Shown here piece after piece: positions 4,108 through 62,143 of a stretch of DNA of 64,000 nucleotides; position 1 is the stretch's first letter, and every line of letters begins with the position of its first letter. The translations under genes were made by a program, and so were the position numbers. The notes beneath the pieces were generated by a model. That model saw only the letters and a program-made list of their open reading frames with translations. It made no database searches and was not told where the DNA came from. This DNA is from Thermodesulfobacteriota bacterium (lineage in GTDB: Bacteria; Desulfobacterota_D; UBA1144; Nemesobacterales; UBA2774): NCBI GenBank assembly GCA_963422265.1, contig OY729416.1:768001-832000 (forward strand), read 5' to 3'.

Positions 4108-4707
4108 TTACTCTTCAAGCTCTACGTTCCAATAAGATATATCTACGAAATTGAGAAAAGGCTCCCATTCCTTATATTTAACCGCTCTAATATAAACGTT
4201 TGAGAATGGATCCCAAAGTGGCTTCTTAGGTTTCTTGATCAAACTCATTCGAGACTGCTCGGGAGTTCTTCCACCCTTCTTTCTGTTGCAGCTAATACAA
4301 CAGCAGACGACGTTATCCCAAGTGCTTTTTCCACCCTGTGAGCGAGGGACAACGTGGTCAATAGTCAACTCGGATCGGGAAAACCTCCTAAGGCAATACT
4401 GACACGCGCCGCCGTCTCTTCTAAATATATTCATGCGGTTAAACTTCGCTTCTTTTCTTACAAAACCCTCGTATCTTACCAAAATTATTACCCTCGGAGT
4501 TTTAATTACAGCACTTACCGTTCTAATAGCTTCATCACGCTCTTTTATTGTTGAGATTTCAGACCATGACTCGAAATCAAAGGTTTCATAATCGCTTCCG
4601 ACAGCTTTAGCAGCCCCATTGTAAAGCATAAGAAACGCCCTTCTCACGCTTATGATAGTAACCGGAACAAAGTAGCGATTTAGAACAAGCACGGGGGAGG
4701 TTAACAT
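4108..4707 (-). CDS. HNH endonuclease (McrA/HNH_5-like) with PLMP-like N-terminal domain
   Basis: RDGGACQYC...TIDHVVPRSQGG...NVVCCCISCNRKKG (Zn-binding HNH). N-terminus is VLVLNRYFVP...RRA...G.AK.V. Confidence 0.88.
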   Translation of the reverse strand: MLTSPVLVLNRYFVPVTIISVRRAFLMLYNGAAKAVGSDYETFDFESWSEISTIKERDEAIRTVSAVIKTPRVIILVRYEGFVRKEAKFNRMNIFRRDGGACQYCLRRFSRSELTIDHVVPRSQGGKSTWDNVVCCCISCNRKKGGRTPEQSRMSLIKKPKKPLWDPFSNVYIRAVKYKEWEPFLNFVDISYWNVELEE

Positions 4708-11620: not shown

Positions 11621-11625
11621 GAACT

Positions 11626-12120
11626 TTAAGAATACAATTTCTTGTTTCTAGCACCCCCATATAAGAAGCGCACGACTAAAATCATTAACGCCGCCAGGGT
11701 TACCTGAAGAACAATTACGGATACTATTTTAAGGTAAGCAAAGTCTGGACTTACGTAACGTATTAGCCATCCACCTGTAATATCGCCTAGAGCCGAAGTG
11801 AACGATCCCACTATGAGAAGCAGTTTCCAGAAGTCGCCGATTTTGGCAAATAGAACAAGGTGGTTAAGGGTTACTAATAGTATAGCCATGGCGAAAAAGT
11901 GGAAATGAGCTTCCTCCAACATTCCAAGGTAGCTTCTAGGTGGCCTGAAACTCTCCTCTGAGCCTAGATAATACTCTACAACCGATTCATAACTAAAGCC
12001 GATTTGCAGATACAAAAGAAGGTTAGTAAGCCACAGGAAGAAAAAAAACAAAACGGTAAAGGCTATAATTAGCCTTAGTAACGTATTCTTTCTAATGTCA
12101 GAGGAAATAAAAAAACGCAA
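11626..12120 (-). CDS. Four-TM membrane protein with clustered His residues (possible heme/metal-binding)
   Basis: Four hydrophobic segments; EEAHFHFFAMAILLVTLNHL motif; 13 nt from the FMN-binding gene, so likely co-transcribed. Confidence 0.75.
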   Translation of the reverse strand: MRFFISSDIRKNTLLRLIIAFTVLFFFFLWLTNLLLYLQIGFSYESVVEYYLGSEESFRPPRSYLGMLEEAHFHFFAMAILLVTLNHLVLFAKIGDFWKLLLIVGSFTSALGDITGGWLIRYVSPDFAYLKIVSVIVLQVTLAALMILVVRFLYGGARNKKLYS

Positions 12121-12133
12121 ACTGCGCCCCCAC

Positions 12134-12685
12134 TTAATTTAGCTGACCGTTATGGAGAGCCATTCTAACAACGTTCAACACCTTTCTCGTTGATTGTGCA
12201 AACGAGTTTGCCGTTATGGTAGCCCCGGTTATATTAGGCAAATCGTTACCCACCTTCAGGGAATCGCGCGTTCCCCTTTCTTTAAAGAGATCAAGCCAGC
12301 TATTTCCCGCCATATAATCAGTCGGCTCAAAGAATGCCAGTATCTCAACGTGCCTCAACGTAACGTCCGAATCAATAACATACATAACCGTCTCAGTTTT
12401 CGTTCTTAACAAATGGGTATCTATTACGGCGTAACCTAATACTTTCTCTCCTATCGTAGCTTTATAGATGACGTATAGGCTCGAATAGATCCTGGCTTTG
12501 GATAAAACCTCGATCTTCCTAGCCTGCTCTTTTGACAGATAAACGTGTTTTTTCTCTATAACCTCTGCCCCCGGAAAAGCGGTATTGAGCGCCTCTTCCC
12601 TTTTCATAAAGACCTTAGACGCCGAAGGTAAAGTCATAAACAACAATAGTGCTAAAATCGTAAGCGCCGTTAATTTTCTCTTCAT
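12134..12685 (-). CDS. Extracytoplasmic FMN-binding domain protein
   Basis: Signal peptide and C-terminal NITGATIT containing the [S/T]GA[S/T] flavinylation motif; FFEP.DY motif. Confidence 0.85.
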   Translation of the reverse strand: MKRKLTALTILALLLFMTLPSASKVFMKREEALNTAFPGAEVIEKKHVYLSKEQARKIEVLSKARIYSSLYVIYKATIGEKVLGYAVIDTHLLRTKTETVMYVIDSDVTLRHVEILAFFEPTDYMAGNSWLDLFKERGTRDSLKVGNDLPNITGATITANSFAQSTRKVLNVVRMALHNGQLN

Positions 12686-12772
12686 TCATTTACCAAATTA
12701 CTAACATAAAACGACAATTGCACGCATTCTTAAATTTATTTTACTCTATATTCATTCCTTACATAGAAATAA

Positions 12773-12808
12773 TGGTAGGGTATGGAACGTAAACGCCACG
12801 CCCTACCA
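12773..12808 (-). terminator. Intercistronic stem-loop after the porin gene (terminator/attenuator or RNA stabiliser)
   Basis: Minus strand TGGTAGGGCGTGG-loop-CCATACCCTACCA followed by TTATTT. Confidence 0.5.
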
Positions 12809-12829
12809 AATCGCATATTTAACTATGAC

Positions 12830-14257
12830 TTAAAACACATATCCAAGACCGAAATTAAATTGATTAGCTCGGGATTCCTTAGACTCGTGGTCAAGCCACT
12901 GATATTCAGCCTTAACAACGACATTGGGAATAGGTTTATAATTAAGCCCAAACGTTAGATCTCTCCTGTCGTTCGCAGGGTTACGCTTAAAACCAGAAGG
13001 GACCTCTGCTTGCGTATCATACTGCTCCCACCTAACAAATGAAGCCAAGTATTGAGCATATTGGCTCGAAAAACCCGTGGAAGAAAGTAAGTTATAGGCG
13101 CCTAATAGATAGTAACCCGTCTGCTTGCTCCCTACGGATTTGTCCTCTTCAAACTCATTGAGAGCATTGATCTCCGCAGCGTCCTCTAACTTTGTAAACA
13201 CATACATTCCCCTCGCTTCAAACCCCCTATACTGAAGCTGCGCGTCAGCCTCATACATCTGGAAGAAGCCTTTTACCTTTTTACTATCCGTTCCCTCATT
13301 GATTTTTCTATCTTGTCCGGTATTACCAGCGAATATGGATCCGCCGATTGATAAGTAAGGGATAGGCTCATACTCTACTCTCCCAACAAAGGCTATGTCA
13401 TTAAAGCGCGCCCTGTTTCCCTTAACCCTAAGCGATCTATTATCTGCAGCTTTGAATCCTTTGGCGTCAAAGCTGTTCATTGCATAAGCCCTATAGCTGA
13501 TGGATCCTGCGCCTTGTAAATCAAAATCACCGAATATGCCTAAGCCGTTTTCCCTCCAAGTCGTGGGAATAATTTGTCTCTCAATAGAGGGTCTAAACAC
13601 GCCGAAGAAGGTCGTAGGTTCATGCACCTCGTTGGTTAACCCAAAGGGTGCGAGCAAAAGCCCCCCTCTAAGGTTGAATCCTGGTGTTATAAGGAAATCC
13701 AGCAGTGCAAATTCGGCGGAGACGGAACCCTCTTTGCCGTCCTTGTTTGACCCCGTAGTCGCATGTTCAAACTCTAGCTCGGAGTTGAAAACTATCCTAT
13801 CAGTAAATTTATATCCAAAGTAGAGAACCGCCCGCTGCGCGTCAACGACGTCGTCTTTATCCCCTTTTACTACTTTGCCAATAGCCAACTCACCGTAACC
13901 ACCTATAGATAATCCTTTGTCTTTCAAATAGATCTTTGAGGCTGCAGGACCAGCACCGTAAACCTGCTCGTAAGTAGGATCATCAACAATGGAAGCAGAC
14001 TTAATGTTATCTATTTCCTCAGCAAGAACCCTTAATTTATCCTCTATAGAATTTAATCTATCGTCAGGCGTGCCTTTGGACTTGAGATCGTTAAGCTCCT
14101 GCATGACGCTTTCAAGTCTCTTCTCCAATTCTCCTATTCTGCTGTCTCGCTCTTGAGAAAATACGTTTCCAGCAGATAAAAGAAACATGGCTAATAGGAA
14201 AAGACTTAAAACGTATCGCCCTCTGTTAAAGGTGAAAAGGGACAATATATAACTCAT
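12830..14257 (-). CDS. Outer-membrane beta-barrel porin-like protein with N-terminal coiled coil
   Basis: Signal peptide, periplasmic coiled coil (RIGELEKRLESVMQELNDLK), IGGYGE, FNSELEFEH, NEVHEPT.F and IIPTTWRENG motifs, amphipathic strands, C-terminal ...GLGYVF. Confidence 0.85.
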   Translation of the reverse strand: MSYILSLFTFNRGRYVLSLFLLAMFLLSAGNVFSQERDSRIGELEKRLESVMQELNDLKSKGTPDDRLNSIEDKLRVLAEEIDNIKSASIVDDPTYEQVYGAGPAASKIYLKDKGLSIGGYGELAIGKVVKGDKDDVVDAQRAVLYFGYKFTDRIVFNSELEFEHATTGSNKDGKEGSVSAEFALLDFLITPGFNLRGGLLLAPFGLTNEVHEPTTFFGVFRPSIERQIIPTTWRENGLGIFGDFDLQGAGSISYRAYAMNSFDAKGFKAADNRSLRVKGNRARFNDIAFVGRVEYEPIPYLSIGGSIFAGNTGQDRKINEGTDSKKVKGFFQMYEADAQLQYRGFEARGMYVFTKLEDAAEINALNEFEEDKSVGSKQTGYYLLGAYNLLSSTGFSSQYAQYLASFVRWEQYDTQAEVPSGFKRNPANDRRDLTFGLNYKPIPNVVVKAEYQWLDHESKESRANQFNFGLGYVF

Positions 14258-18029: not shown

Positions 18030-19043
18030 TCAGCCGCCAAAAACTTCTAATATTGCCCTCTGATAGGTTCTAACCTCATCAAAGCCAAGATAATAGTGCG
18101 GAGCGCTCAGAATAGGTAAGTCTATATAATCGAGATATTTATCAATCTTTCTTCTACATTCATCTGCATTGCCAACTACGGCGAAAGCGTCAACCATGTC
18201 ATCGCTCACGCCTTTAATCATAGACCTGACGTCGCCTCTAAAAAAAGCCTCCCGAATTTCCGCTGCTTCCCTTTCAAAACCATGAAGCTTAAAAGGTGGC
18301 TCGTAAGTCCTGACCGTCGCATAGAATGCTACTGTAGCCTTAGCAGCCTCAACCGCAGATCTTCTATCTTCAGAAATAGCGCAGGTAATAATTGACGAGA
18401 TTTGAAAATCCTTTTTACTCCTCCCAGATTTAGCAAGCCCCTTTTTTATATTGTTACCGACAATTTCTTTTATATATCTAAGAGAGCATACTACGTGTCC
18501 TAAATAGCCGTCGGCTACTGCCCCAGCCGCACTCACCATATCGCCCCCAACGCCTGCAAGATACACGGGAATATTCTTTCGAAAAGGCTTAAACACACGG
18601 CGGTAGCCCCTTGTGCTAACATCATAGAACTCACCCTTAAAAGCTACCGGATCAGCTAGATGAGCGCTTTGCATAAGCAAGCGGATAATCTCAATACATT
18701 CCTTAACGCGAGCTACGGGATTTGTAAAGCTCAGTCCATGCCACATTTCATTTGTGCGCTTAGCACCCGTGCCAAGCCCCAGAACGAATCTTCCATCTGA
18801 GATTTCATCAAGATCTAGAGCCGTAAGAGTCGTAATGAGAGGGCTTCTTGCAAAAGCAAGGGCAACGGCGGTCCCGAGTCTTATAGTATGAGTTGACTGC
18901 GCTACGGATGACAGTTGTTGAAAAGAAGTTCTGTAAAGCTCTGTAGCCCAGATAGAATCAAAGTTTGCATCCTCGGCTTCTTGGGCTAGTTTTTTAAGGT
19001 CAGCGATACTTTCCGCGTCTAGTATTAGTCCAACCTTTTTCAT
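18030..19043 (-). CDS. LLM-class (luciferase-like) oxidoreductase, probably F420-dependent subfamily
   Basis: IRLGTAVALAFARSP, DEISDGRFVLGLG, G.FY, PVYLAGVG..M..AG..ADG and AFYAT motifs. Confidence 0.85.
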   Translation of the reverse strand: MKKVGLILDAESIADLKKLAQEAEDANFDSIWATELYRTSFQQLSSVAQSTHTIRLGTAVALAFARSPLITTLTALDLDEISDGRFVLGLGTGAKRTNEMWHGLSFTNPVARVKECIEIIRLLMQSAHLADPVAFKGEFYDVSTRGYRRVFKPFRKNIPVYLAGVGGDMVSAAGAVADGYLGHVVCSLRYIKEIVGNNIKKGLAKSGRSKKDFQISSIITCAISEDRRSAVEAAKATVAFYATVRTYEPPFKLHGFEREAAEIREAFFRGDVRSMIKGVSDDMVDAFAVVGNADECRRKIDKYLDYIDLPILSAPHYYLGFDEVRTYQRAILEVFGG

Positions 19044-45337: not shown

Positions 45338-47350
45338 TTAATAAGCGGAAGCCTCGATATTACCCCAATCATCAACCGCGCATTTATAGTCAGGTGGGAC
45401 AAATATCGTAGATGTATTTTCCAGTATAAGAGAGGGTCCCGTGAACGCAAACCCACAATAAAACTCTTCTCGCTTATACGTAGCCACGCTGATTTGCCTA
45501 CCCTCAAAAATGATTTTTTTCTTTTGAGGATATATATCTATCTTTTCGTTAGTGAGTTTAGGTAATTTGATCTTTCTCTTCTTAGCTACTGCCCTCACTC
45601 TTATGGTAACAACTTCAACGCCGTCACCAGTTTTCATATATCCAAACGCCTTTTTATGGGCACGGTGAAAAACTCCTATAAAATTCTTGGTATAGGGAAT
45701 AGTCAGCTCGTGAGCCTGTCTTTTGTAGCGTGCGTCTAGGAAGCGCTTAAAACTAATTTGCTCGTGGTAAGAACTTGTCCTTACCCCTGATTGAAAATCG
45801 GCGAGCGCTTTACGCTCCAAGTCTATAAACCGTCCCTCCAATGCCTCTGCTGTCGCCAAAGCCCCCGCAAGAAATACTGTAACGCTATAGTCCTTAAAAG
45901 AATCCGCCATGAGCATTCCAAGAGCGGAAAGCACGCCTGGGCTTCTGGGGAAAACTACTTTCTTCGTTTCTATATTTCGAGCAAGCTCGCAGGCGTGAAG
46001 CCCACCTGCACCACCAAACGACACCATCGCAAAGTCCCTTGGATCATAGCCCCTCTCTATAGATACGCTCCTTAGAGCTCTTTCCATATTGGCGTTAGCA
46101 ACCCTAATAACGCCTTCTGCAAGATCAAGCAAAACTTGTCCCAGACCTCCTTTATTAAGAGGGAGTTTCATCTCTCTTGCGAGCTTCTCAAGGGCGATTT
46201 CAGATCTTTGCTTGGATATTTTCATACGCCCGCCAAGGAACCACTCAGTATCTATTCTACCAAGCGCCACATGCGCGTCGGTTACGGTGAGCTCATCGCC
46301 TTTCCCATAGCACACGGGACCGGGATCGGCTCCCGCACTCTTTGGTCCCAGCTTGAGCGCCCCTCCTACGTCGCAGTGCGCAATCGAGCCTCCTCCAGCT
46401 CCAATGGTAGTAACGTCAATCATGGGAACACTGATCGGAATACCATCAATCTCTGTCTCTGTAGTAAAATCAATCCCTCCATTGCAAAGAGAGACGTCCG
46501 TTGAAGTTCCCCCCATATCATAAGTTATAATTCGTTCATACCCCATGGAAGCAGCTATATTAAAACTGCCTACCACACCCCCCGCCGGTCCTGAAAGTAG
46601 AATCCTTACAGGTTCATCACCTGCCTTCTCGGGAGAAATAATTCCCCCATTTGACTGCATAACGGACAAGTCGCAAGAAGAGTCGCTTATACTTGATATC
46701 TCTGATGAAAGTGAATCCATATATAGCTTGACCTTAGGAAGCAGATAAGAATTTGCGACTACGGTAGAAGTCCTTTCGTATTCTCTGAACTCAGGAAGTA
46801 TTTGTGAAGAAGCCGAAATTGGAACTCCGAGGGGGTTTAGGTGCTCAGCTACTATCTTTTCATTCGTAGGATTCGCATACGAGTGAAGAAAAGATATTGC
46901 TACCCCTTCAACATTCAGTCTTTTCAGCTTAGAAAATAATTCTTCAAGCTGATCTTTACTTACTCTACTTAAGACTTTTCCCTGGTAAGTAGTCCTTTCG
47001 GTAATTCCAAACCTAAGCTCTTTCTCGACGAGAGGCTGATGAGCCTGCCAGAAAACATCATATAGGGAGTCTCTATTCTGCCTTCCGATCTCTATAACGT
47101 CTTGAAAACCATCGGTTGTCACAAGGGCTATTACCGCTCCCTTCCTTTCGAGCAAAGAGTTTGTGGCAACCGTCGTGCCGTGAACGACATCAAAATTTGA
47201 TAGCCTATTTCCGATAATATCAATCAGACCCGACATTATAGCTTCTGAGGGGTCAGAGGGCGTAGAAGAAACTTTATGGGTAAAAAGATTCTTTCCATCA
47301 AAAAAAACAAAATCAGTAAACGTACCGCCTGTGTCAATACCAACTCGCAT
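45338..47350 (-). CDS. Hydantoinase/oxoprolinase subunit A (HyuA-like, ATP-dependent)
   Basis: GIDTGGTFTD, HGTTVATN, REYER, LSGPAGG, DMGGTSTD, GAGGGS, SAGADPGP.CYG and FGGAGG.HA motifs. Confidence 0.93.
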   Translation of the reverse strand: MRVGIDTGGTFTDFVFFDGKNLFTHKVSSTPSDPSEAIMSGLIDIIGNRLSNFDVVHGTTVATNSLLERKGAVIALVTTDGFQDVIEIGRQNRDSLYDVFWQAHQPLVEKELRFGITERTTYQGKVLSRVSKDQLEELFSKLKRLNVEGVAISFLHSYANPTNEKIVAEHLNPLGVPISASSQILPEFREYERTSTVVANSYLLPKVKLYMDSLSSEISSISDSSCDLSVMQSNGGIISPEKAGDEPVRILLSGPAGGVVGSFNIAASMGYERIITYDMGGTSTDVSLCNGGIDFTTETEIDGIPISVPMIDVTTIGAGGGSIAHCDVGGALKLGPKSAGADPGPVCYGKGDELTVTDAHVALGRIDTEWFLGGRMKISKQRSEIALEKLAREMKLPLNKGGLGQVLLDLAEGVIRVANANMERALRSVSIERGYDPRDFAMVSFGGAGGLHACELARNIETKKVVFPRSPGVLSALGMLMADSFKDYSVTVFLAGALATAEALEGRFIDLERKALADFQSGVRTSSYHEQISFKRFLDARYKRQAHELTIPYTKNFIGVFHRAHKKAFGYMKTGDGVEVVTIRVRAVAKKRKIKLPKLTNEKIDIYPQKKKIIFEGRQISVATYKREEFYCGFAFTGPSLILENTSTIFVPPDYKCAVDDWGNIEASAY

Positions 47351-48460: not shown

Positions 48461-48946
48461 TCACCTGTTTCTCTTAGGTCTATCTTTCTCTTCAATATAA
48501 TCGCCTATAAACGTTTTCTGTCTTACGGAAGGGGGAAGATTTGAAAGATCGGGCTTTGGCATATCGGTTGAAAGGTCGGCGGTAAAGGCAAAACCTGAAA
48601 AGACCTTCTCTAGTTTCTTTGATCCGCAGAAAAGACATTTCAGCTTTTTCTCGTCTCCATCTTCATAGATAAGCTCCGAGAATCGATAATTTTTTTGTAG
48701 ATTAAACAATACAAGAACAGCCCCTTCATTCACGTAGAAATCTAAGTCCACCCCCCTTCCATCTCTCTTTCCATGTTCAGCCACTATCTTTTCTTTCTCG
48801 AGATCAAGCACGCCTATATGGTTTATATTGCTACACTTCTTTACAATATCAGATACTTTCTTCTTAGTCGCACCCTCCTCAATCTCTCTTAGAGAACCCT
48901 CGATTTCCTTTCTACATTTTACGCACTCAAACTCATAAAGCGGCAT
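48461..48946 (-). CDS. FmdB-like zinc-ribbon protein with large internal insertion (paralog 1)
   Basis: MPLYEFECVKC-x92-CLFCGS...KVFS; AGGAGG RBS. Confidence 0.8.
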   Translation of the reverse strand: MPLYEFECVKCRKEIEGSLREIEEGATKKKVSDIVKKCSNINHIGVLDLEKEKIVAEHGKRDGRGVDLDFYVNEGAVLVLFNLQKNYRFSELIYEDGDEKKLKCLFCGSKKLEKVFSGFAFTADLSTDMPKPDLSNLPPSVRQKTFIGDYIEEKDRPKRNR

Positions 48947-48970
48947 TTAAGCATCCTCCTCATTATAAAA

Positions 48971-49474
48971 TTAGCGATTGAAGTATTGGTTTAAGTGATC
49001 CTGACCTACCCAATCATTCCTTATTTCTTCATCTTTCTGTTGTTTATATTCCAGATGCCATCTGAGCTCATCCTGGGGTCCGGGCGCCCGCTTGCTCTTA
49101 TCGTCAAATATCGCCTTAAACGTAGAGAAAATTCTTCTCACGTTTTTATCCCCACAAATGGGGCATTCTAAATCCTCTTCATCACCCTTGTCGTAGATAA
49201 GTGAGCTAAACTTAAAGTTCTTTAGCTCAAGGTAAAGCATCTTATTTTTATCGAGCTTATATCTAAACCTTCTTACGTTGCGTTCCGTGACCTTCTCGCC
49301 AAGAGCAAACAGCAGCTTGCCATTATTACCATTTGTTACTTCTATGTAAAGAAAACCCTCATTAGCTTTTCTGATTCTAGAAGCGTTAGTTTTGTTAAGC
49401 CTAGCCGTAAGGGCATCTATATCTTTATTGTATCGGTCTATACACACGTCGCACTCATACTCGAACAAAGGCAT
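48971..49474 (-). CDS. FmdB-like zinc-ribbon protein with large internal insertion (paralog 2)
   Basis: MPLFEYECDVC-x92-CPICG...RIFS; AGGAG RBS. Confidence 0.8.
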   Translation of the reverse strand: MPLFEYECDVCIDRYNKDIDALTARLNKTNASRIRKANEGFLYIEVTNGNNGKLLFALGEKVTERNVRRFRYKLDKNKMLYLELKNFKFSSLIYDKGDEEDLECPICGDKNVRRIFSTFKAIFDDKSKRAPGPQDELRWHLEYKQQKDEEIRNDWVGQDHLNQYFNR

Positions 49475-53331: not shown

Positions 53332-53547
53332 ACTGCTTACAGTTTGAAAAGACGGCGGAATGGCAAAGCTAATAAATGGCAAGACAATAAAAGTAATGAC
53401 AATTTTAGATCAATCAATTTTGCCGAGCGCCCCAATTTCAAGTCCAAATAGTTCTAGTTATAAGGAAGCGATAGAAAACTACGAACACTACCACCAACTT
53501 GCTGCGCAGCCTAATTTTATCCTAACTATAGAAAAGAGGTGCGTATA

Positions 53548-54822
53548 ATGAGCAATGAAGAAGTCTCCAGAGATGAAAAACTAGTCAGGTCCATTCAGAA
53601 AAAATATCGAGAAATGTTAGAAGATGGGGTTGACCCTTACGAATGGGCTTACGCATGGAGATCAGAGATTAACCGCGGGGGCTTTAAGGCGGTAGATTTC
53701 CTGATGCGAGAAATAGTTGACACAGGTAAATGCGTAGGGTGCGCCGCATGCGTTACTATATGCCCTACGGACGTTTTTGACTACAAAGACGAACGCCCTA
53801 CGGACACTAGAAATGACGCGTGCGTGTTCTGCGAGCTTTGCGCGGACGTCTGCCCAGTGTTGAGACCCCTCGATAAAGATTTGCAAACCCTACTAGAATT
53901 CAAACAACCGACGATTGACGAGGGATTTGGTCCTTATAGTTATGCAGTAATAGCACGCGCTAAGGACCAGGAATTCCTAGACGCCGGACAGGATGGTGGA
54001 GTAACAAGCGCGCTCTTAGTTCACATGCTTGAAAACGAATCTATAAACGGCGCTGTTTTAGGGGACGTGCTTCCCGAAAATCCACAAGTAGGCATTCAAA
54101 AACTCGCTACAACGGCTGAGGAAATAAAAACGTGCAGCGGATCAAGATACACCTACTCTCCAAATACCCTAGCCCTTACGGAAGCTATGCGGAAAGACGT
54201 GCGCCCCATAGCGGTTGTCGGAGTGCCGTGCCAGGTTGACGGGGTGCGCCAGCAGCAATATAGCAGCATACGCCTTGAAGTCGCCAAATGGTATCAAAAG
54301 AACGTATCGCTCGTCATTGGACTTTTCTGCTCCGAAAGCTTTACTCACGAACACATAACGCACATAGCTAAGGAATTGGACGTTGAACCCAAAGACATAG
54401 TGAGCGTGAATGTAAAGGGCAAGGTCATTATAGAGCTTAGGGATGAGAGAGAGATAATTATGAAATTGAAGGATTTTCACCCATTCGCACGCCCAGCCTG
54501 TCTATATTGCCTGGATTACGCCGCGGATCACGCGGATATAGGGGTTGGGGGAATCGGGCTTCAGGGATGGACCTTTGTAGCAGTACGCACCGAAGCTGGG
54601 CACAAAGCCTGGCAGGCAGCCGTTGACGACGGACTTTTTGAGATCGTCCCCGTAGAATCAGAACCCAGAGCCAAGAACCTTCTCATAAGACTCTCCGAGA
54701 TGAAGAGAAATAAGCCGTTACCTGCCTTAATGCCAACATATCAGGAAAGGGTAGAAATGGGAAATACAAATCCTAAGACCTTCTATAAGAACTATAAGAA
54801 ACCTACCAATGGAGGAAGTTAG
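53548..54822 (+). CDS. Coenzyme F420 hydrogenase/dehydrogenase beta-subunit (FrhB/FpoF) family protein with N-terminal 2[4Fe-4S] ferredoxin domain
   Basis: CVGCAACVTICP and CVFCELCADVCP ferredoxin motifs. FrhB motifs QDGGVTSALL, SGSRY..SP, VGVPCQ, IGLFC and C..C.D.....ADI.VG. RBS AAGAGGT before ATG 53548. Confidence 0.9.
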   Translation: MSNEEVSRDEKLVRSIQKKYREMLEDGVDPYEWAYAWRSEINRGGFKAVDFLMREIVDTGKCVGCAACVTICPTDVFDYKDERPTDTRNDACVFCELCADVCPVLRPLDKDLQTLLEFKQPTIDEGFGPYSYAVIARAKDQEFLDAGQDGGVTSALLVHMLENESINGAVLGDVLPENPQVGIQKLATTAEEIKTCSGSRYTYSPNTLALTEAMRKDVRPIAVVGVPCQVDGVRQQQYSSIRLEVAKWYQKNVSLVIGLFCSESFTHEHITHIAKELDVEPKDIVSVNVKGKVIIELRDEREIIMKLKDFHPFARPACLYCLDYAADHADIGVGGIGLQGWTFVAVRTEAGHKAWQAAVDDGLFEIVPVESEPRAKNLLIRLSEMKRNKPLPALMPTYQERVEMGNTNPKTFYKNYKKPTNGGS

Positions 54823-54827
54823 GTTAA

Positions 54828-56633
54828 ATGAGTTCTAACAACGGACAACCCATATTGGAAGACGTGAGCGTTATTGTAGCCGGGCAGGGAGGAGACGGCT
54901 CGCTGACCGTAATTACCATGCTAGCCGACCTGTTTCGCAACATCGGGCTAAACGTATATACGGAAAGAGACGTTCTATCGCGGATTAGAGGCGGGCACGC
55001 AGCCGCCACGATGAGAGCATTTACCGGCGAGAGATACTGCATAGGAAGTAGAATCACCCTACTGCTGGCACTAGACGAGGAAGCTATAGAAAAAAACGCA
55101 AGACAGCTAGACTCTGATAGTATTGTTATCTATGACGATTCCAGTGGACATATCCCTTACGACCTACTACCTGAAGGCGTAAAGATATATTCCGCATCCT
55201 TTAACCGAATTGCTATGCGCACTATGCGCCGCGAACTTTATAAAAACAGTATAGCCTTTGGAATCGTGGGACGCCTGCTTGGCTTAGAGGACGAAGCGAT
55301 GCGCGAGACGTTTACCAAAAGGTTTCAAAGAAGAGGACAGATGATCCTCCAGTATAATCTCGAAGCACTTGGTCTCGGGCTTGATCTGGCAGATGAAATG
55401 GGAATCCACCAAGGAGAAGGACTTTACAGAGTAGAGCGCACGGATCCCGAAACGCACCTTTTAATAATGGGAAATGAGCTTGTGGCTTTTGGATTTATGG
55501 TGGCAGGCGGAAGGTTTTTTACGGGTTATCCTATTACTCCCTCTTCTGAAATTTTGGAGACGCTTCAAAAATGGCTCCCCAAGTGTGGAGGGATAGCGAG
55601 ACAGACAGAGGATGAGCTAGCCGGCATAAACATGGCTATAGGGGCTGCCCTTACCGGAGTTAGAACTATGACGGCTACGTCGGGTCCAGGTTTTTCGCTA
55701 ATGCAGGAGGGCATAGGACACGCGGGATCGGCGGAAATTTCCATGGTCATAGTTGACTGCCAGAGATCTGGTCCCAGCACTGGAATGCCTACCAGGCCAG
55801 AACAAAGCGATTTGAATCTTATGGTATTTGGTGGACACGGAGACTTTCCCAGAATAGTGCTTGCTCCCGGACACCCGGAAGACTGCTTTTACTTAAGCGT
55901 AGAGGCGACCAACCTCGCCGACAAGTATCAGTGCCCGGTATTCATAGCAATGGATCAAGCTCTATCCCAAAACATCGCTAGCGTAAAACCGTTCAATCTT
56001 GATGAGATTAAGCTAGATCAGGGAAAGAGACTTGAACTAGAAGACCTTGAAAAACTAGAGTTTTACAAACGTTACCAAATCACGGACGACAACGTATCAC
56101 CGTTCGCAGCTCCGGGGACGCCGGGCGGCATGTCGCTCGTAACCGGCAACGAGCACGATGAGTTTGGGCTAGTCTCCACCGATCCAACAAACCGCGTGCG
56201 TATGATGGATAAGCGTATGAAGAAGATGGAAAGAGCTAAAAAGGACCTGCCCAAAGCGCGCCACTTTGGAGACCCAAACGCCGAGGTAGGGTTTATAGGC
56301 GTAGGAATGATGTTCGGCGTCATACTCGAAGCTATGGAAGAACTAGAGCATCAGGGAATCAAAGGTCAGTACCTACAACCGAGAACAATATGGCCCATGC
56401 TCGATGACGTTATGGAATTCATTGAAAAATGCGAGCGGGTTTACGTAGTAGAGATGAATGCTCAGGGACAGCTAGCACACCTGTTCTTTCATCAAGGAGC
56501 TTCGTCTGAAAAAATAAAAAGCATCGCCCGGTATGATGGACTTCCCTACAGACCGTCTCAGCTTGTTAAACAAATATTATTAGAAGAGAAGAATTTTCTG
56601 AACGAAGAAAGAAAGGAGGCTAAAGCGCAATGA
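54828..56633 (+). CDS. korA: 2-oxoacid:acceptor (ferredoxin) oxidoreductase alpha subunit (gamma-alpha fusion)
   Basis: AGQGGDG, SRIRGG, GYPITP, Q.EDE, TATSGPG.SLM.E, QR.GPSTG.PT..EQ.D and VE.N..GQ motifs. Confidence 0.92.
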   Translation: MSSNNGQPILEDVSVIVAGQGGDGSLTVITMLADLFRNIGLNVYTERDVLSRIRGGHAAATMRAFTGERYCIGSRITLLLALDEEAIEKNARQLDSDSIVIYDDSSGHIPYDLLPEGVKIYSASFNRIAMRTMRRELYKNSIAFGIVGRLLGLEDEAMRETFTKRFQRRGQMILQYNLEALGLGLDLADEMGIHQGEGLYRVERTDPETHLLIMGNELVAFGFMVAGGRFFTGYPITPSSEILETLQKWLPKCGGIARQTEDELAGINMAIGAALTGVRTMTATSGPGFSLMQEGIGHAGSAEISMVIVDCQRSGPSTGMPTRPEQSDLNLMVFGGHGDFPRIVLAPGHPEDCFYLSVEATNLADKYQCPVFIAMDQALSQNIASVKPFNLDEIKLDQGKRLELEDLEKLEFYKRYQITDDNVSPFAAPGTPGGMSLVTGNEHDEFGLVSTDPTNRVRMMDKRMKKMERAKKDLPKARHFGDPNAEVGFIGVGMMFGVILEAMEELEHQGIKGQYLQPRTIWPMLDDVMEFIEKCERVYVVEMNAQGQLAHLFFHQGASSEKIKSIARYDGLPYRPSQLVKQILLEEKNFLNEERKEAKAQ

Positions 56634-57511
56634 CGGCTGAGCCAAAGACAAAAACGTTTGAACCTGCAAGACCTATATGGTGTGCAGGGTGCGGTGATTT
56701 CGCCGTGCAGGGGGTTCTTGAAAAAGCGCTCAAAAAAAAGGGAATACCACCACACAAGCTAATGATACTAGCAGGTATAGGCTGCTCCGGCACGATACAA
56801 AATAATATAAAGTGCTATGGGTATCATGCGCTTCATGGGAGGGTGCTACCTACCTCAATCGGAGCTAAGCTGGCTAATCCAGATCTGACCATCGTTGCAG
56901 CGGGGGGAGACGGGGATGGGTTCGCAATCGGCTCAGGACACCTAGTGCATACCTTCAAAAGCAACCCTAGCATAACGTATATAGTTATGAATAACAGCAA
57001 CTATGGCCTTACAAAAGGGCAGGCTTCACCTACAAGTCCCACTGGGTACCGAGACAACTCAGAGGAAGGTATGGATTCTATCCTACTCGGATTAAGCTTT
57101 CCCTCAACTACTTTTCTGGCTCGGGGCTTCAGTGGTAACCCCGAGCAATTAGAAGCCTTAATGACTGCAGCTATTGAACATACGGAAGCTGGCAAAGGTT
57201 TCGCGTTCCTCGAAGTGCTCTCACCCTGCGTCACGTATTATGATACGCACCGCGAATGGCGATCTAGGGTCTATAATTTAGATGATGAAAAAAATTTCAA
57301 CCCCGCTAACAGAACGCTAGCATTTCAAAGAACCTTAGAACTCATGGAAGAAGGACGTATACCGATAGGACAGATATTTAATGGCAAGCATCCATCGCTA
57401 GAATCTCTAGCTGTGAATCAAAAAGAACTTCCCCCCGCACATCAAAGAATCGGGAGTAACAACCATCACAGGGAACATTACGAAAATTTTATAGCTTCCT
57501 ATATAGGTTAA
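56630..57511 (+). CDS. korB: 2-oxoacid:acceptor (ferredoxin) oxidoreductase beta subunit
   Basis: WCAGCG, GIGCS, HGR, GGDGD (TPP), N..YGLTKGQ.SPT and SPCVT motifs; ATGA overlap with the alpha gene. Confidence 0.92.
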   Translation: MTAEPKTKTFEPARPIWCAGCGDFAVQGVLEKALKKKGIPPHKLMILAGIGCSGTIQNNIKCYGYHALHGRVLPTSIGAKLANPDLTIVAAGGDGDGFAIGSGHLVHTFKSNPSITYIVMNNSNYGLTKGQASPTSPTGYRDNSEEGMDSILLGLSFPSTTFLARGFSGNPEQLEALMTAAIEHTEAGKGFAFLEVLSPCVTYYDTHREWRSRVYNLDDEKNFNPANRTLAFQRTLELMEEGRIPIGQIFNGKHPSLESLAVNQKELPPAHQRIGSNNHHREHYENFIASYIG

Positions 57512-57879: not shown

Positions 57880-60690
57880 ATGAACACGTTACATTTTTTC
57901 CATGGACCTAATTCAGGTTACTTTCTGGAACTCTACGACAAATACCTAGAAAACCCCACTTCTATAGATTCTCATGCAAAGACGCTCTTTGACAAGTGGA
58001 AATCTGAGCTTGCATCTACGAGGCATAAGGAGGCAAGCCCTCAGAATATGGAGAAAATAGTAGCCACGGTGAACTTAACTCAGACGATCCGCGCATTCGG
58101 ACACCTTGGTGCTAGAATAAATCCACTGAACAGTAGTCAGATCTACGACTCTGCCCCTTATACCACCACTCATAATTTAACTGAAGAAGACCTATGTCAA
58201 CTGCCTTCTAGCTTGATTGGTGGAAAGATAGCAGAGGAAACTTCCAATGCGCTAGAGGCAATAAGAAAGCTGCGCGCAGTTTATTCATCTACAGTAGGAT
58301 ACGACTACTACCATATATATGATTATGAAGAGAGGGAGTGGCTAAGAGACGCTGCAGAGTCCGGGAGATTCAGACCTCCTAAAGACCCAATCAATGAAAG
58401 ACTGCTACTCGATAATCTTACCAAGGTAGAGGTATTTGAACGCTTCCTCCACAGTATATTCCCTGGCAAATTCCGTTTTTCAATTGAAGGCGTAGATATG
58501 TTAGTGCCTATGTTAAACGAGATAGTGGGACTAGCGGCAGAATCAGGAACGCATCATATATTGCTCGGTATGGCTCACAGGGGTCGCCTGAACGTTATGC
58601 ATCACGTAACTAATAAGGATTATAAAGGCACTTTGATTAAGTTTAAGGACCCAGTTCTTGAACGCGATTTTCAGGATGACATGGGATGGACAGGAGACGT
58701 TAAATACCACGAAGGAGCCCGTCATTCTATAGTAGGTAACGGAAGAGAGATAGACATGGAGATTACACTTGCACCAAACCCAAGCCATCTAGAATCTGTC
58801 AATCCCGTAGTAGAGGGTATGTGTCGCGCCGCTGGCACCAGGGCTGATAATCCCGGAGCACCAGAATTTGACCCAGAGGTTTCCATACCTATTATAGTCC
58901 ACGGAGACGCAGCGTTTCCCGGGCAAGGCATAGTCTCAGAGACCTTAAATCTTTCTCGTCTCGACGGCTATACTACAGGAGGCACCATACACATTATTAC
59001 AAACAATCAAATCGGTTATACAACACTACCTAGCGAAGCACGAAGTACCTTGTACTCCAGCGACTTGGCAAGGGGATTTGAAATTCCTATAGTGCACGCA
59101 AACGCCGATGATCCTGAAGCCTGTATAGAGACCGCACGCCTTGCGTTTAACTACTTGAAAAGGTTCCAGAAAGATTTTTTGATAGACTTAGTTGGCTATA
59201 GGCGTCATGGACATAATGAAGCGGATGAACCTAATTTCACACAGCCCGAAATGTATGAAATGGTAGAGAACCACCCAACGGTGAGGGAGATTTGGTCTAA
59301 TACACTCATAGAGCGGAACATCATCAAGAAGGAAGAGACGGAAGAAATTCTTAATAAGTATAATAAAATACTACACAAGGACTTTAAATCACTCAGCCCG
59401 GACGATGTGCCTCGGGAAAAACATTTACCCCCCCCCGTAGGAGCCGCGCAAAAAGTTAAGACGGCAGTATCTGCTGATAAACTAAGAGAGCTAAATGACT
59501 CGCTTCTAAAACTCCCGCAGAGTTTTTCTATCAACCCTAAGATAAAGCGTGGTAGAGATAGGAGGGTAAACGCTCTCAATACTCTCGACCAAAAAACAAT
59601 TGACTGGGCAACAGCGGAGGATTTAGCTTTTGCATCAATTCTAGCGGATGGAACTGCCATTAGACTTACAGGACAGGATACGCAAAGGGGAACGTTTAGC
59701 CACAGACATGCCGTCCTTCACGATTCAAAAACGGGCAACTTATTCACGCCACTCCAAAACTTGCCCCAGGCTAAAGCCTCATTCGAGGTGCATAACAGCC
59801 CTCTTACGGAGAATGCCTGCATAGGCTTTGAATATGGCTATAACGTAAAAGAGCCAAAGCGTCTTGTGATTTGGGAGGCGCAATACGGTGACTTTATAAA
59901 CGGTGCTCAGACGATCGTTGATGAATTTCTAGTTTCCGCAAGGGCAAAATGGGGACAAACACCTTCCCTCGTTCTATTATTACCACATGCCTATGAAGGG
60001 CAGGGACCCGATCACTCGTCAGGCAGGATCACAAGATTTCTAGGCTCCGCTGCGGAGATAAATATGCGGATCGCCAATTGCACCACATCGGCGCAATACT
60101 TCCATTTGCTTAGACGGCAGGCTGAGATATTGGAAATTGATCCCCTGCCCTTAATAGTATTGACCCCTAAGAGCCTACTTAGAAACCCCCAAGTCCATTC
60201 ATCCCTTAAAGAATTCTCCGAGGGGGCGTGGCAGCCGGTAATAGACGATGCTAGGAATGATAAAGACGCTGAGAAAGTAAAGCGCTTGATTCTATGCAGT
60301 GGTAAGGTCTATATTGATCTTATTGCGAGTAAATATATGAAAAACACCTGCGAAGATATCGCTATCGCTAGGGTGGAACAGCTTTATTCCATCCCAAAGG
60401 CGCCACTGACAAAGGTGATAAAAAGGTATGTAAACCTAAAAGAAGTCGTTTGGCTTCAGGAAGAGCCTGAAACAATGGGAGCCTGGATGTTTATGTTCCC
60501 ATTTCTAAGAAAAATAATCAATAAACGCGTTCCTCTTCATTACATGGGAAGACGCCGCAACTCCAGCCCAGCGGAAGGCTCTTTGTCAATGCACAAAGTG
60601 CATCAGGAAGCATTGATAAGGCAAGCCTTTATGACTGCAAAATTGCCCAACATTGATGAGTTAGGGGTTACTTGGGTTAAAAACGTATGA
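57880..60690 (+). CDS. sucA: 2-oxoglutarate dehydrogenase E1
   Basis: RFSIEG, GMAHRGRLN, GDVKYH, NPSHLE, HGDAAF.GQG, RRHGHNE, RGTFSHRH, WEAQ.GDF.N and EGQGPDHSS motifs. Confidence 0.97.
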   Translation: MNTLHFFHGPNSGYFLELYDKYLENPTSIDSHAKTLFDKWKSELASTRHKEASPQNMEKIVATVNLTQTIRAFGHLGARINPLNSSQIYDSAPYTTTHNLTEEDLCQLPSSLIGGKIAEETSNALEAIRKLRAVYSSTVGYDYYHIYDYEEREWLRDAAESGRFRPPKDPINERLLLDNLTKVEVFERFLHSIFPGKFRFSIEGVDMLVPMLNEIVGLAAESGTHHILLGMAHRGRLNVMHHVTNKDYKGTLIKFKDPVLERDFQDDMGWTGDVKYHEGARHSIVGNGREIDMEITLAPNPSHLESVNPVVEGMCRAAGTRADNPGAPEFDPEVSIPIIVHGDAAFPGQGIVSETLNLSRLDGYTTGGTIHIITNNQIGYTTLPSEARSTLYSSDLARGFEIPIVHANADDPEACIETARLAFNYLKRFQKDFLIDLVGYRRHGHNEADEPNFTQPEMYEMVENHPTVREIWSNTLIERNIIKKEETEEILNKYNKILHKDFKSLSPDDVPREKHLPPPVGAAQKVKTAVSADKLRELNDSLLKLPQSFSINPKIKRGRDRRVNALNTLDQKTIDWATAEDLAFASILADGTAIRLTGQDTQRGTFSHRHAVLHDSKTGNLFTPLQNLPQAKASFEVHNSPLTENACIGFEYGYNVKEPKRLVIWEAQYGDFINGAQTIVDEFLVSARAKWGQTPSLVLLLPHAYEGQGPDHSSGRITRFLGSAAEINMRIANCTTSAQYFHLLRRQAEILEIDPLPLIVLTPKSLLRNPQVHSSLKEFSEGAWQPVIDDARNDKDAEKVKRLILCSGKVYIDLIASKYMKNTCEDIAIARVEQLYSIPKAPLTKVIKRYVNLKEVVWLQEEPETMGAWMFMFPFLRKIINKRVPLHYMGRRRNSSPAEGSLSMHKVHQEALIRQAFMTAKLPNIDELGVTWVKNV

Positions 60691-60868: not shown

Positions 60869-62143
60869 ATGCAAATAAATGTCACCGTACCAGAATTAGG
60901 GGAATCAATCGTCGAAGCAACAATAGTAAGATGGCTTAAATCAGAGGGAGACCCGGTGAGAATCGGCGAGTCATTGGTAGAACTTGAAACTGAGAAGGCT
61001 AATTTTGAGGTTGCTGCCGAAAAAGAGGGAATACTTAAAAGCATAACAAAAAGGGAAAGCGTTGATATTGAAGTCGGTGATGTCATAGGAATTATTGAAG
61101 AAGGTGAACCTTCGACCGGAGTTGGGGATATTATTGAGAGCACCGAAGTTTCAGAGGAAAAACTCGTAGCAACTGAGACTATAAACAAAGTAGAGTCTCA
61201 AGAAGAGCCCCTGCACGACAAAATAACTCCCGTAGCGAGGCGTATAGCTCAGGATAATAATGTTGATCTGGATAAAGTCAGAGGAAGTGGAGCTAGTGGA
61301 CGCATTACAAAAGAAGACGTGGAAAAATACATGAAAGAACGCGTGACAAGCAAAGAACTAGAGAGTTCTACGTCAGAGACAACCACCCAACCCGCAGTCT
61401 TAGTCAGCCAAAAAGCACCTCTTTCCCCCATAGCAAAAGAGGATCGTAGAGAAGAGCGCGTTAAAATGTCTCGACGCAGGAGAACAATTGCAAGAAGGAT
61501 GCTTGAGTCGGCACAGTCAACTGCTATGCTCACGACTTTCAACGAGATTGACATGGGCGCCGTTATGAGCCTTAGAAAGAGCCACAAGGAGTCATTTAAG
61601 GAAAAATACGGCGTCAGCCTAGGCTTAAATTCCTTCTTCGTTAAAGCTACCATAGGAGCTCTAAAGGAGTTTGCGGTGCTCAACGCTGAGATCGAAGAAG
61701 ATACTATGATCCTAAAGCGATACTACGATATTGGCATTGCAATCGGAGCTTCTGAGGGACTCGTCGTCCCAGTTCTAAGAAATGCAGACGGTATGTCGTT
61801 CGCCGAGATTGAGAAAAGAATCAAGAATTTCGCGCAGAAGGCCGAGGACAACAGCCTCTCCCTTGAAGACATCATGGGAGGCACCTTTACGATTACAAAC
61901 GGGGGCGTATTCGGTTCTATGATGAGCACCCCTATCCTTAACCCACCTCAAGTGGGCATACTAGGACTTCATAGAATAGAGGAGAGGCCAATAGTGATTA
62001 ACGGCAATATAGAAATCCGACCCATGATGTACGTGGCGCTTAGCTACGACCACAGAATTGTTGACGGACGCGAGGCAGTGCAGTTCCTCGTTAAAGTCAA
62101 GGAGCTTGTTGAATACCCTGAAATACTACTGCTTGAAGGATAA
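60869..62143 (+). CDS. sucB: Dihydrolipoamide succinyltransferase E2
   Basis: Lipoyl domain (ELETEKA), E3-binding domain ([11 protein letters not shown]), [21 protein letters not shown] and ALSYDHR..DG motifs. Confidence 0.97.

Follow-up and report, generated by a model that had tools for sequence, protein, structure and literature searches.

We analyzed a window of 64,000 nucleotides (positions 768,001 to 832,000 of the forward strand of contig OY729416.1, GenBank assembly GCA_963422265.1) from a Thermodesulfobacteriota bacterium. The subject here is a cluster of three genes in this window, coding for an iron-sulfur flavoprotein of the FrhB family, which we call FrhBl, and for the alpha (KorA) and beta (KorB) subunits of an enzyme of the 2-oxoacid:ferredoxin oxidoreductase (OFOR) type. 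Together they probably form an enzyme that passes electrons from a 2-oxoacid to coenzyme F420. The genome is a single contig of 1.78 Mb, 99.4% complete and Dadabacteria-like, and the nearest homologues of FrhBl come from metagenome-assembled genomes (MAGs) named Candidatus Dadabacteria or Thermodesulfobacteriota. The three genes are:

53548..54822, plus strand: FrhBl, 424-aa iron-sulfur flavoprotein, putative F420-reductase subunit (Pfam, PDB matches, structural model)
54828..56633, plus strand: KorA-type alpha subunit, 601 aa, domains III-I-II fused (TIGR03710, PDB match)
56630..57511, plus strand: KorB-type beta subunit, 293 aa, binding thiamine pyrophosphate (TPP) (Pfam TPP_enzyme_C and PFO_beta_C, PDB matches)

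The likeliest start of FrhBl is the ATG at 53548, which has an AGAGG-type ribosome-binding site in front; the GTG at 53539 is another possible start. The stop codon, TAG at 54820-54822, is separated by a 5-nt gap (gttaa) from the ATG of KorA, which has GGAGG upstream, and KorA and KorB share an ATGA overlap at 56630-56633. An earlier note on this DNA, made from the sequence alone, had claimed three tightly coupled genes with no separate ferredoxin or delta gene. The open reading frames (ORFs), junction sequences and Pfam matches bear out the coupling, and no small cysteine-rich ORF of the delta or ferredoxin kind was found in the intergenic regions flanking the cluster. A 62-aa ORF at 53360-53548 was dropped as a gene, as it is not conserved in relatives. 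A scan for promoters and terminators yielded counts no better than in shuffled sequences. One sequencing run, possibly of RNA, contained short fragments covering the three genes.

The FrhBl and KorAB proteins

FrhBl belongs to the FrhB/FdhB superfamily. Apart from a Fer4 dicluster match, it carries the two Pfam domains of this superfamily (PF04422 and PF04432), FrhB_FdhB_N (1.1e-16) and FrhB_FdhB_C (4.7e-37), which pass the gathering scores with 61.2 bits (22 required) and 127.6 bits (23.3 required), respectively. Four regions can be distinguished:

53548..53712, plus strand: N-terminal extension, residues 1-55 (invariant columns in alignments A1 and A4)
53713..53877, plus strand: 2x[4Fe-4S] ferredoxin domain, residues about 56-110 (Pfam Fer4 families)
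53947..54660, plus strand: FrhB-type domain for flavin adenine dinucleotide (FAD) plus a [4Fe-4S] cluster (HMMER alignment to M. marburgensis FrhB)
54703..54786, plus strand: proline-rich C-terminal tail (invariant in alignments A1 and A4)

The ferredoxin domain has two CxxCxxCxxxCP motifs (C62/65/68/72 and C92/95/98/102), and all eight cysteines are invariant in 30 aligned members of the family. The same holds for the QDGG (Q148-G151), SRYTY (S199-Y203) and LFCSESF (L259-F265) motifs of the FrhB-type domain and for Cys228, Cys261, Cys318 and Cys321, four cysteines for one [4Fe-4S] cluster. In the HMMER comparison, the three motifs align onto the FAD-binding loops of M. marburgensis FrhB, namely 24QDGG, 71-77 and 131-138 with Cys134 (PMC3930138). 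The N-terminal extension contains the invariant residues P30, E32, W33, W37, R38, E40, N42, G44, G45, F46, V49, D50 and L52; this motif is in part common to archaeal-type sister proteins, and the extension may be a docking element. The tail, with invariant K386, P390, P392, M395, P396, R401, P409, K410 and Y413, is specific to the proteins linked to KorAB and is missing from the six archaeal-type sister proteins that were aligned. It is conserved, and we infer that it has a role.

The structure of FrhBl was modeled from a 128-row alignment, with a predicted local distance difference test score (pLDDT) of 94.3 and a predicted template modeling score (pTM) of 0.93; an earlier model from a 14-row alignment (pLDDT 60) was discarded in its favor. 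The top Foldseek matches of the model are 8riu_B (E 5.9e-29, template modeling score TMt 0.83) and 8rja_E (2e-28, TMt 0.82), followed by FrhB (TMt 0.85-0.88) and Fsr. A sequence search of the PDB gave the same proteins: 8rja_E (1.5e-39), FrhB 3zfs_C (4.4e-39), further FrhBs, 8riu_B in sixth place (5.3e-36) and Fsr (2e-32), with FdhB (4e-14) and HCAR (2e-8) far behind. HCAR (PDB 5DQR), a reductase of chlorophyll metabolism that does not use F420, is of the same superfamily, and its match is much weaker also in fold (TM 0.54-0.55, root-mean-square deviation 9.3, 18% identity). BciB, likewise of chlorophyll metabolism, is another member of the FrhB family that does not use F420. The closest solved relatives of FrhBl, i.e. 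8rja_E, FrhB, 8riu_B and Fsr, are all F420-reactive. Hence the placement within the FrhB family, which the earlier note had wanted checked, puts FrhBl with the F420-reactive members and not with HCAR, both by sequence and by fold.

In public databases, the relatives of FrhBl are annotated as 'coenzyme F420 hydrogenase subunit beta'. This raises the possibility that FrhBl is simply a misannotated beta subunit of an F420 hydrogenase, or the FpoF of some hydrogenase or respiratory complex, whose gene happens to lie before korAB. We find this hardly credible. FrhBl stays below the FrhB equivalog cut-off TIGR03289 (176 vs 331.5 bits) and the subfamily cut-off NF006807 (201.2 vs 269), and also, despite the shared ferredoxin plus FrhB architecture, below the FpoF/FqoF cut-offs NF040616 and NF006808 (126.3 bits vs 475 and 444). 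It is the only gene of the FrhB family in the genome, and its universal synteny with KorAB and separate clade, described below, also argue against an incidental position. An NCBIfam scan of 130 of 150 representatives of the relatives, which left out fragments shorter than 270 aa and a few others, matched FrhB-type models only and gave no FpoF, FdhB or BciB label.

KorA contains the Pfam domains POR (domain III, 1e-21), POR_N (domain I, 4e-55) and PFOR_II, and passes TIGR03710 (OAFO_sf), the alpha-subunit model of two-subunit 2-oxoacid:acceptor oxidoreductases, with 599.3 bits against a cut-off of 482.75. It is the only OAFO-type OFOR alpha subunit in the genome. Its YPITP motif (Y234-P238) and Q312-R313 are invariant in the 30 members; the roles of YPITP and of the conserved arginine were taken from PMC5020499. 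The best PDB match is 6n2n_A, the alpha subunit of the Magnetococcus 2-oxoglutarate:ferredoxin oxidoreductase (OGOR), with 376 bits, and the Sulfolobus StOFORs come next. KorB contains TPP_enzyme_C (4.9e-20) and PFO_beta_C. It scores under the cut-offs of the curated beta-subunit models TIGR02177 (228 vs 261.9 bits) and PRK11866 (254.5 vs 402 bits), while beta subunits in the PDB match it at 1e-44 to 1e-47, the closest being 5b46_B (StOFOR2, 162.8 bits) and 6n2n_B (OGOR beta, 153.5 bits). The TPP motif and C18, C21, C52 and C200, the cysteines of a single proximal [4Fe-4S] cluster, are again invariant in the 30 members. The two proteins do not reach the cut-offs of the OGOR models NF007206 (257.3 vs 579 bits) and NF007207 (132.1 vs 364).

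Two-subunit (alpha-beta)2 OFORs are described by Yan et al. (2016; PMC5020499) as having no delta or ferredoxin subunit and no internal ferredoxin domain. Instead, a sizeable pocket between domains III and VI receives an external ferredoxin close to the single cluster, and reports of this type have so far come from aerobes (PMC5020499). Since such enzymes normally lack a delta or ferredoxin subunit, its absence here is in itself no sign of a replacement. The earlier note had taken the absence in this sense when it claimed that FrhBl replaces the missing subunit; that argument falls, while the F420 role it gave to FrhBl is supported.

Conservation of the three genes as one unit

A genome scan with one genome per species yielded 191 relatives of FrhBl, and the best 80 loci were kept. 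KorA lies directly 3' of FrhBl in all 80 of these, and KorB follows KorA in 72/72 loci that reach that far, the other eight contigs ending inside KorA. Judging by record titles, the loci come from Dadabacteria-type MAGs, Acidimicrobiia and other Actinomycetota, Gamma- and Alphaproteobacteria, Chloroflexota, Gemmatimonadota, Bipolaricaulia and a 'Poribacteria' MAG. From metagenomes, a second scan that started from more distant archaeal-type homologues gave 80 loci, 63 of them of the FrhBl family. Here KorA is the next gene in 50/50 loci with more than 404 nt downstream; 13 were too short. The order of the three genes, another point that the earlier note had set as a check, is therefore kept at every locus with enough sequence.

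The proteins of the other 17 metagenome loci are nearest to the sister proteins, which cluster with members named Caldiarchaeum and Thaumarchaeota/Nitrososphaerota, and neither KorA nor KorB was found in the flanks of these 17 loci. Among eight sister loci that were annotated, one is directly upstream of the alpha and epsilon subunits of CO dehydrogenase, and the rest have unrelated neighbors. In a FastTree tree of 137 proteins, 27 KorAB-linked proteins and P0124, a representative of unchecked context, form one clade with Shimodaira-Hasegawa-like support of 99. Nine homologues with a checked non-KorAB context (eight sister proteins and a paralogue from genome G019) are outside it.

The three genes are also inherited together. 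Their pairwise identities co-vary, with r=0.90 for FrhBl and KorA, 0.84 for FrhBl and KorB, and 0.91 for KorA and KorB. By heuristic start calls, 4-nt overlaps occur between FrhBl and KorA in 22/30 loci and between KorA and KorB in 27/30. These observations bear on an alternative in which FrhBl is a soluble F420 reductase like free FpoF, co-expressed with KorAB and in transient contact with it, and perhaps served by other Fe-S donors. Two-subunit OFORs do use freely diffusing ferredoxins (PMC5020499), and a physical complex is what we propose here rather than observe. Nevertheless, we consider a soluble FrhBl unlikely, given the translational coupling, the universal gene order, a co-variation as strong as that of KorA with KorB, and the conserved N- and C-terminal extensions of the clade, which are partly missing from the non-KorAB sister proteins. 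The alternative differs from a stable complex in the tightness of the contact alone, and the net chemistry would be the same.

Several loci deviate from the common pattern or add to it. A Chloroflexia MAG encodes KorA and KorB as one 907-aa ORF (L078:8293-11016), which is a fusion or a sequencing frame error. The sister-type gene upstream of the CO dehydrogenase alpha and epsilon genes (metagenome contig, L173:2369-6430) codes for a ferredoxin-FrhB protein and has the arrangement published for the F420-reducing acetyl-CoA decarbonylase/synthase (ACDS). The G019 paralogue (L098:6688-8169, equivalent to G019:C1:60687-62168) is a second FrhB-family protein of 493 aa in a gammaproteobacterial genome of 5.8 Mb; it has no Pfam Fer4 match at the threshold used, and its gene adjoins genes for a high-potential iron-sulfur protein and a luciferase-like monooxygenase, not KorAB. 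Finally, 73 flanking ORFs from 18 non-Dadabacteria loci were scanned for a clue to the substrate or electron sink, and only TetR regulators and short-chain dehydrogenases/reductases (SDR) recur, in some Gammaproteobacteria. In six gammaproteobacterial-type loci, the cluster is immediately preceded by a gene for a divergent TetR regulator (L043:6252-6821, L053:6266-6832, L061:6231-6812, L067:6330-6905, L088:6289-6972 and L058:2781-3362), and a 254-aa SDR lies downstream in four (L041, L067, L088 and L058).

Association with F420 biosynthesis, Fno and Fgd

The earlier note had called for a search for F420 biosynthesis genes, and all of cofC (155.4 bits), cofD (321.2), cofE (263.8), cofG (437.4) and cofH (494.1) are present in the host genome above the curated cut-offs. 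We then considered 50 cluster-bearing genomes, selected among those of the 80 loci so that the lineages are represented. CofE is above the cut-off in 47 of them, and a 48th, G050, has cofD, located in its cluster locus, and a cofH-type gene. As a background we used 300 Gammaproteobacteria drawn evenly around one carrier. This seed is the only one of the 300 with the cluster, and 13/300 genomes have cofE including the seed, i.e. 12/299 without it. In Fisher tests that ignore relatedness, the difference in cofE between the 50 carriers and the background has p=4e-43, and for the 27 Proteobacteria-labeled carriers, 25 of which have cofE, p=4e-26. The cluster is thus nearly confined to genomes with F420 genes, as the earlier note's reading had implied.

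In 12/80 loci, from Alpha- and Gammaproteobacteria, Actinomycetota and the 'Poribacteria' MAG, cof genes are directly beside the cluster. The order FrhBl-KorA-KorB-cofE-cofD-cofC-cofG-cofH, all on one strand, is found in L079 and L080, while in L050, L070, L071, L083 and L086 cofE or cofD flank the cluster. Since the linkage extends to cofD and cofE and not just to the FO synthase genes cofG and cofH, it points to F420 rather than FO. The L079 string (L079:7019-15246) is a complete set of genes for making and, putatively, charging F420, and is seen in Acidiferrobacteraceae-labeled and other MAGs. Strings of this type suggest that the whole set may have been transferred as one island.

The distribution of the cluster is complementary to that of Fno and Fgd. 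Fno is above the cut-off in 6/50 carriers (five of Dadabacteria type and the Bipolaricaulia MAG). Fgd is above the cut-off in 1/50, and in three more carriers matches reach E<=1e-60, with two narrowly missing the cut-off (400-410 bits); this Fgd figure is a floor, as only part of the candidates was scored. Neither Fno nor an Fgd-like gene was detected in 40/50 carriers, and either one was detected in 0/27 Proteobacteria-labeled carriers. By contrast, among the 12 Gammaproteobacteria that have cofE but not the cluster, ten have Fno and the other two Fgd, and none of the 12 has an FrhB-family gene. Such a distribution would be expected of a cluster that takes over the function of Fno or Fgd. In the cluster-less gammaproteobacterial F420 producers G060, G061, G079, G148, G149, G255, G269 and G280, Fno is located about 100-200 nt from cofE; this is the position held by the cluster in loci of the L079 type.

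The host genome itself encodes Fno/npdG (238.8 vs 149.8 bits) and no Fgd above the cut-off. Because of this Fno, the KorAB-FrhBl route would be an additional one here. The earlier note's claim of an F420H2 route distinct from Fgd and Fno is therefore supported, but not as the sole route in this genome.

The same data bear on a different alternative, in which the complex is real but its FrhB-like subunit reduces another acceptor, such as nicotinamide adenine dinucleotide (phosphate), NAD(P)+, free FO, a quinone or a pathway-specific substrate. The enzyme would then be akin to the NAD-reducing phenylglyoxylate dehydrogenase, an OFOR type that has its own reductase module. Such OFORs, extended by a module for another acceptor, do exist, and PadF and PadG of the NADH-dependent phenylglyoxylate dehydrogenase are among the weak NCBIfam matches. 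HCAR, matched by FrhBl at 2e-8, and BciB show that members of this family may have other substrates. Moreover, no F420-bound structure of the FrhB family is described in the available parts of the structure reports, so that the F420 pocket of FrhBl cannot be checked residue by residue, and two of the 50 carriers have no detected F420 genes. On the other hand, the tight association with cofE (47/50 vs 12/299), the cof gene sets adjoining the cluster in 12 loci, the complementarity with Fno and Fgd, and the F420-reactive nature of all nearest solved relatives each favor F420, and free FO fits poorly with a linkage that includes cofD and cofE and not cofG and cofH alone. Another acceptor thus seems improbable to us.

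A candidate consumer of F420H2 is encoded elsewhere in the window:

18030-19043, minus strand: luciferase-like (LLM) oxidoreductase (TIGR03617 202.6 bits, cut-off 278.15; Mer-like 183.7 bits)

The earlier note had called this gene F420-type. The gene is real and is one of five luciferase-like matches in the genome, but its score with the F420-LLM model is under the curated cut-off, so that its use of F420H2 is possible rather than established. In the cluster-bearing Gammaproteobacteria G009, G012, G019, G020, G028 and G034, the first look with the Fgd model returned 83-96 candidates, compared with fewer than 25 in most others. These counts hint at very large LLM families, which could be users of F420H2.

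Proposed reaction and relation to known enzymes

Taken together, the comparative data support the F420-linked 2-oxoacid dehydrogenase claimed in the earlier note, as each check that was run came out in its favor. We propose, with a probability of roughly 70%, that the three genes encode one complex, a 2-oxoacid:F420 oxidoreductase, in which FrhBl passes the electrons to F420 and not to ferredoxin. From the gene layout, the conserved cofactor-binding residues, the coupled inheritance of the three genes and their association with F420 biosynthesis, we infer the complex as such, the route of the electrons and the acceptor. KorA and KorB would form an (alpha-beta)2 TPP enzyme converting a 2-oxoacid and CoA to acyl-CoA and CO2. 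Its sole cluster would be the proximal [4Fe-4S] one, and the site at which ferredoxin normally docks would be an open pocket, in which the ferredoxin domain of FrhBl may be seated permanently. Single electrons would pass, in two one-electron steps, from the KorB cluster to the two ferredoxin clusters of FrhBl, then to the cluster of the FrhB domain and to FAD, from which a hydride would be transferred to F420. The net reaction would be 2-oxoacid + CoA + F420 -> acyl-CoA + CO2 + F420H2. In the host, Fno could pass the reducing power of F420H2 on to NADPH, or the two routes might be redundant.

The 2-oxoacid couple is at about -500 mV and F420 at about -340 mV. As the former is well below the latter, the reaction would be strongly downhill and its direction set. 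The reverse reaction, an F420H2-driven reductive carboxylation of acyl-CoA by a 2-oxoacid synthase serving CO2 assimilation or anaplerosis, could be invoked because OFORs are reversible and because KorA has its closest structural relative in 6n2n, an OGOR of the reverse tricarboxylic acid (TCA) cycle type. At these potentials, F420H2 would be too weak a reductant for such a couple, and the Pfam content of the three genes includes no bifurcating or energy-coupling module. Furthermore, the hosts are heterotrophs with sucAB adjacent, and the complementarity is with F420-reducing enzymes. We therefore regard the reverse direction as very unlikely.

The genes adjacent to the cluster are aspS upstream and, downstream, two genes of the NAD-linked 2-oxoglutarate dehydrogenase:

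57880-60690, plus strand: sucA, E1 subunit (NCBIfam NF006914, 1076.7 bits)
60869-62143, plus strand: sucB, E2 subunit (NCBIfam NF004309, 534 bits)

SucAB is directly downstream of the cluster in 19 Dadabacteria-type loci. It is absent from this position in one Dadabacteria-type locus with room for it and in 56/56 other loci, so the adjacency is lineage-specific. Because sucAB adjoins and KorA is closest to OGOR, our first guess for the substrate in the Dadabacteria-like lineage would be 2-oxoglutarate, although pyruvate or a broad range is also possible. If it is 2-oxoglutarate, its electrons could be directed either to NADH, by sucAB, or to F420.

Several points weigh against a 2-oxoacid:F420 oxidoreductase. 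First, the available parts of the FrhB and Fsr structure reports state that no F420 density was obtained. Second, two cluster-bearing MAGs, G033 and G045, have no cofE, cofD or cofH above the cut-off. Third, neither shared ancestry nor joint horizontal transfer is taken into account in the co-occurrence statistics. Fourth, in the Fgd search, scoring in several large genomes was limited to 34 of as many as 96 candidates from the first look. Fifth, the host, having Fno, has no strict need for another F420 reductase. Finally, the substrate-specificity residues of KorAB appear ambiguous: in a motif-based register, not a tool alignment, Lys49b of StOFOR1 corresponds to Thr55 and Leu123b to Leu127 of KorB.

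Other features were also seen in the window. A 199-aa ORF at 4108-4707 (minus strand) is apparently a stand-alone HNH-type nuclease gene, its sole NCBIfam matches being to the HNH region of Cas9d (2.1e-16) and to IscB (2.5e-12). No NCBIfam match at 1e-5 was obtained for four ORFs at 10346-14257 (424, 164, 183 and 475 aa). Two adjacent ORFs at 48461-49474 and 45338-47350 (both minus strand) have FmdB-type zinc-ribbon matches and are near a hydantoinase/caprolactamase-alpha-like gene.

The closest published parallel is the pair of enzymes 8RIU and 8RJA from the ethane-oxidising archaeon Ca. Ethanoperedens thermophilum, an F420-reducing CO dehydrogenase (ACDS zeta is chain B) and a formylmethanofuran dehydrogenase (chain E), respectively (Lemaire, Wegener and Wagner, 2024; PMC11493965). 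In their extra subunit, residues 1-83 are the ferredoxin domain and residues 84-349 the F420-reductase domain, followed by a C-terminal extension; the subunit is anchored via its ferredoxin domain and makes F420 the acceptor of the enzymes in place of ferredoxin (PMC11493965). FrhBl has the same order of 2x[4Fe-4S] domain, FrhB-type domain and C-terminal extension, and is genetically coupled to an oxidoreductase. As in the archaeal enzymes, a CO2-releasing enzyme that is normally linked to ferredoxin would here be rewired to F420. Unlike 8RIU_B and 8RJA_E, which are archaeal and anaerobic and whose partners are CO dehydrogenase and Fwd, FrhBl is bacterial, is found in hosts with an aerobic-type metabolism (sucAB) and is partnered with a TPP-dependent OFOR. 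The identity is just 25-26%, and FrhBl has its own N-terminal extension and proline-rich tail.

FrhBl shares both Pfam domains and the QDGG, SRYTY and FCSE motifs with FrhB, FpoF/FqoF and the N-terminal half of Fsr, F420-reacting modules found in methanogens and Archaeoglobus, and an N-terminal ferredoxin domain with FpoF and Fsr; unlike FrhB and FpoF, it is under both sets of curated cut-offs and in a clade of its own. KorAB resembles the Magnetococcus marinus OGOR (6N2N) and Sulfolobus tokodaii StOFOR1/2 (5B46-5B48) in its III-I-II alpha and domain-VI beta subunits, YPITP, the arginine for the substrate carboxylate, four cysteines for one cluster and the lack of domain V. Mycobacterial KorAB is a further two-subunit 2-oxoacid:ferredoxin oxidoreductase. 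Whereas the acceptor of 6N2N and StOFOR1/2 is free ferredoxin, every member of the present family has a dedicated ferredoxin-FrhB protein encoded before korA. With Fno and Fgd the enzyme would share the role of making F420H2 and, with Fno, the position beside cofE. It differs from them in fold and in electron donor (NADPH for Fno, glucose-6-phosphate for Fgd), and their distributions in Proteobacteria are complementary.

The cluster is thus best classed as an OFOR core with a putative bolt-on F420 reductase, both parts being of known kinds and their combination apparently new. In the available text of the 2021 review on F420 (PMC8498797, Table 2), the bacterial F420-reducing dehydrogenases are Fno and Fgd only, and the role of F420 outside Actinobacteria is described as untested. 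A term search of the same review (PMC8498797) gave no occurrence of FrhB, oxoglutarate or 2-oxoacid, and one of a November 2026 review on the diversity of pyruvate:ferredoxin oxidoreductases gave none of F420 or FrhB. A literature search (supplements excluded) returned no account of an FrhB-type subunit with KorAB or another OFOR, nor of a bacterial 2-oxoacid-dependent reduction of F420.

A broader reading, to which we give slightly less than even odds, is that a wide range of aerobic marine and soil bacteria (Dadabacteria, many Gamma- and Alphaproteobacteria, Acidimicrobiia, some Chloroflexota and others) charge F420 mainly, and often solely, by this three-subunit enzyme. The enzyme would replace Fno and Fgd there, tap a 2-oxoacid of central metabolism (about -500 mV) and keep the F420 pool strongly reduced, and it would have spread between phyla with the cof genes as a self-sufficient island. 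If the enzyme does reduce F420, a 2-oxoacid would be the direct source of F420H2 in many F420-producing Proteobacteria and Acidimicrobiia, in which neither Fno nor Fgd was detected. Such an activity would be new among enzymes and would connect the TCA cycle or the pyruvate node with F420-dependent chemistry, including that of the large sets of luciferase-like enzymes in these genomes. The bolt-on F420 reductase principle, reported in 2024 for two archaeal enzymes, would then hold for bacteria and for OFORs as well, and the enzyme could provide an NADPH-independent module of F420H2 regeneration for biocatalysis.

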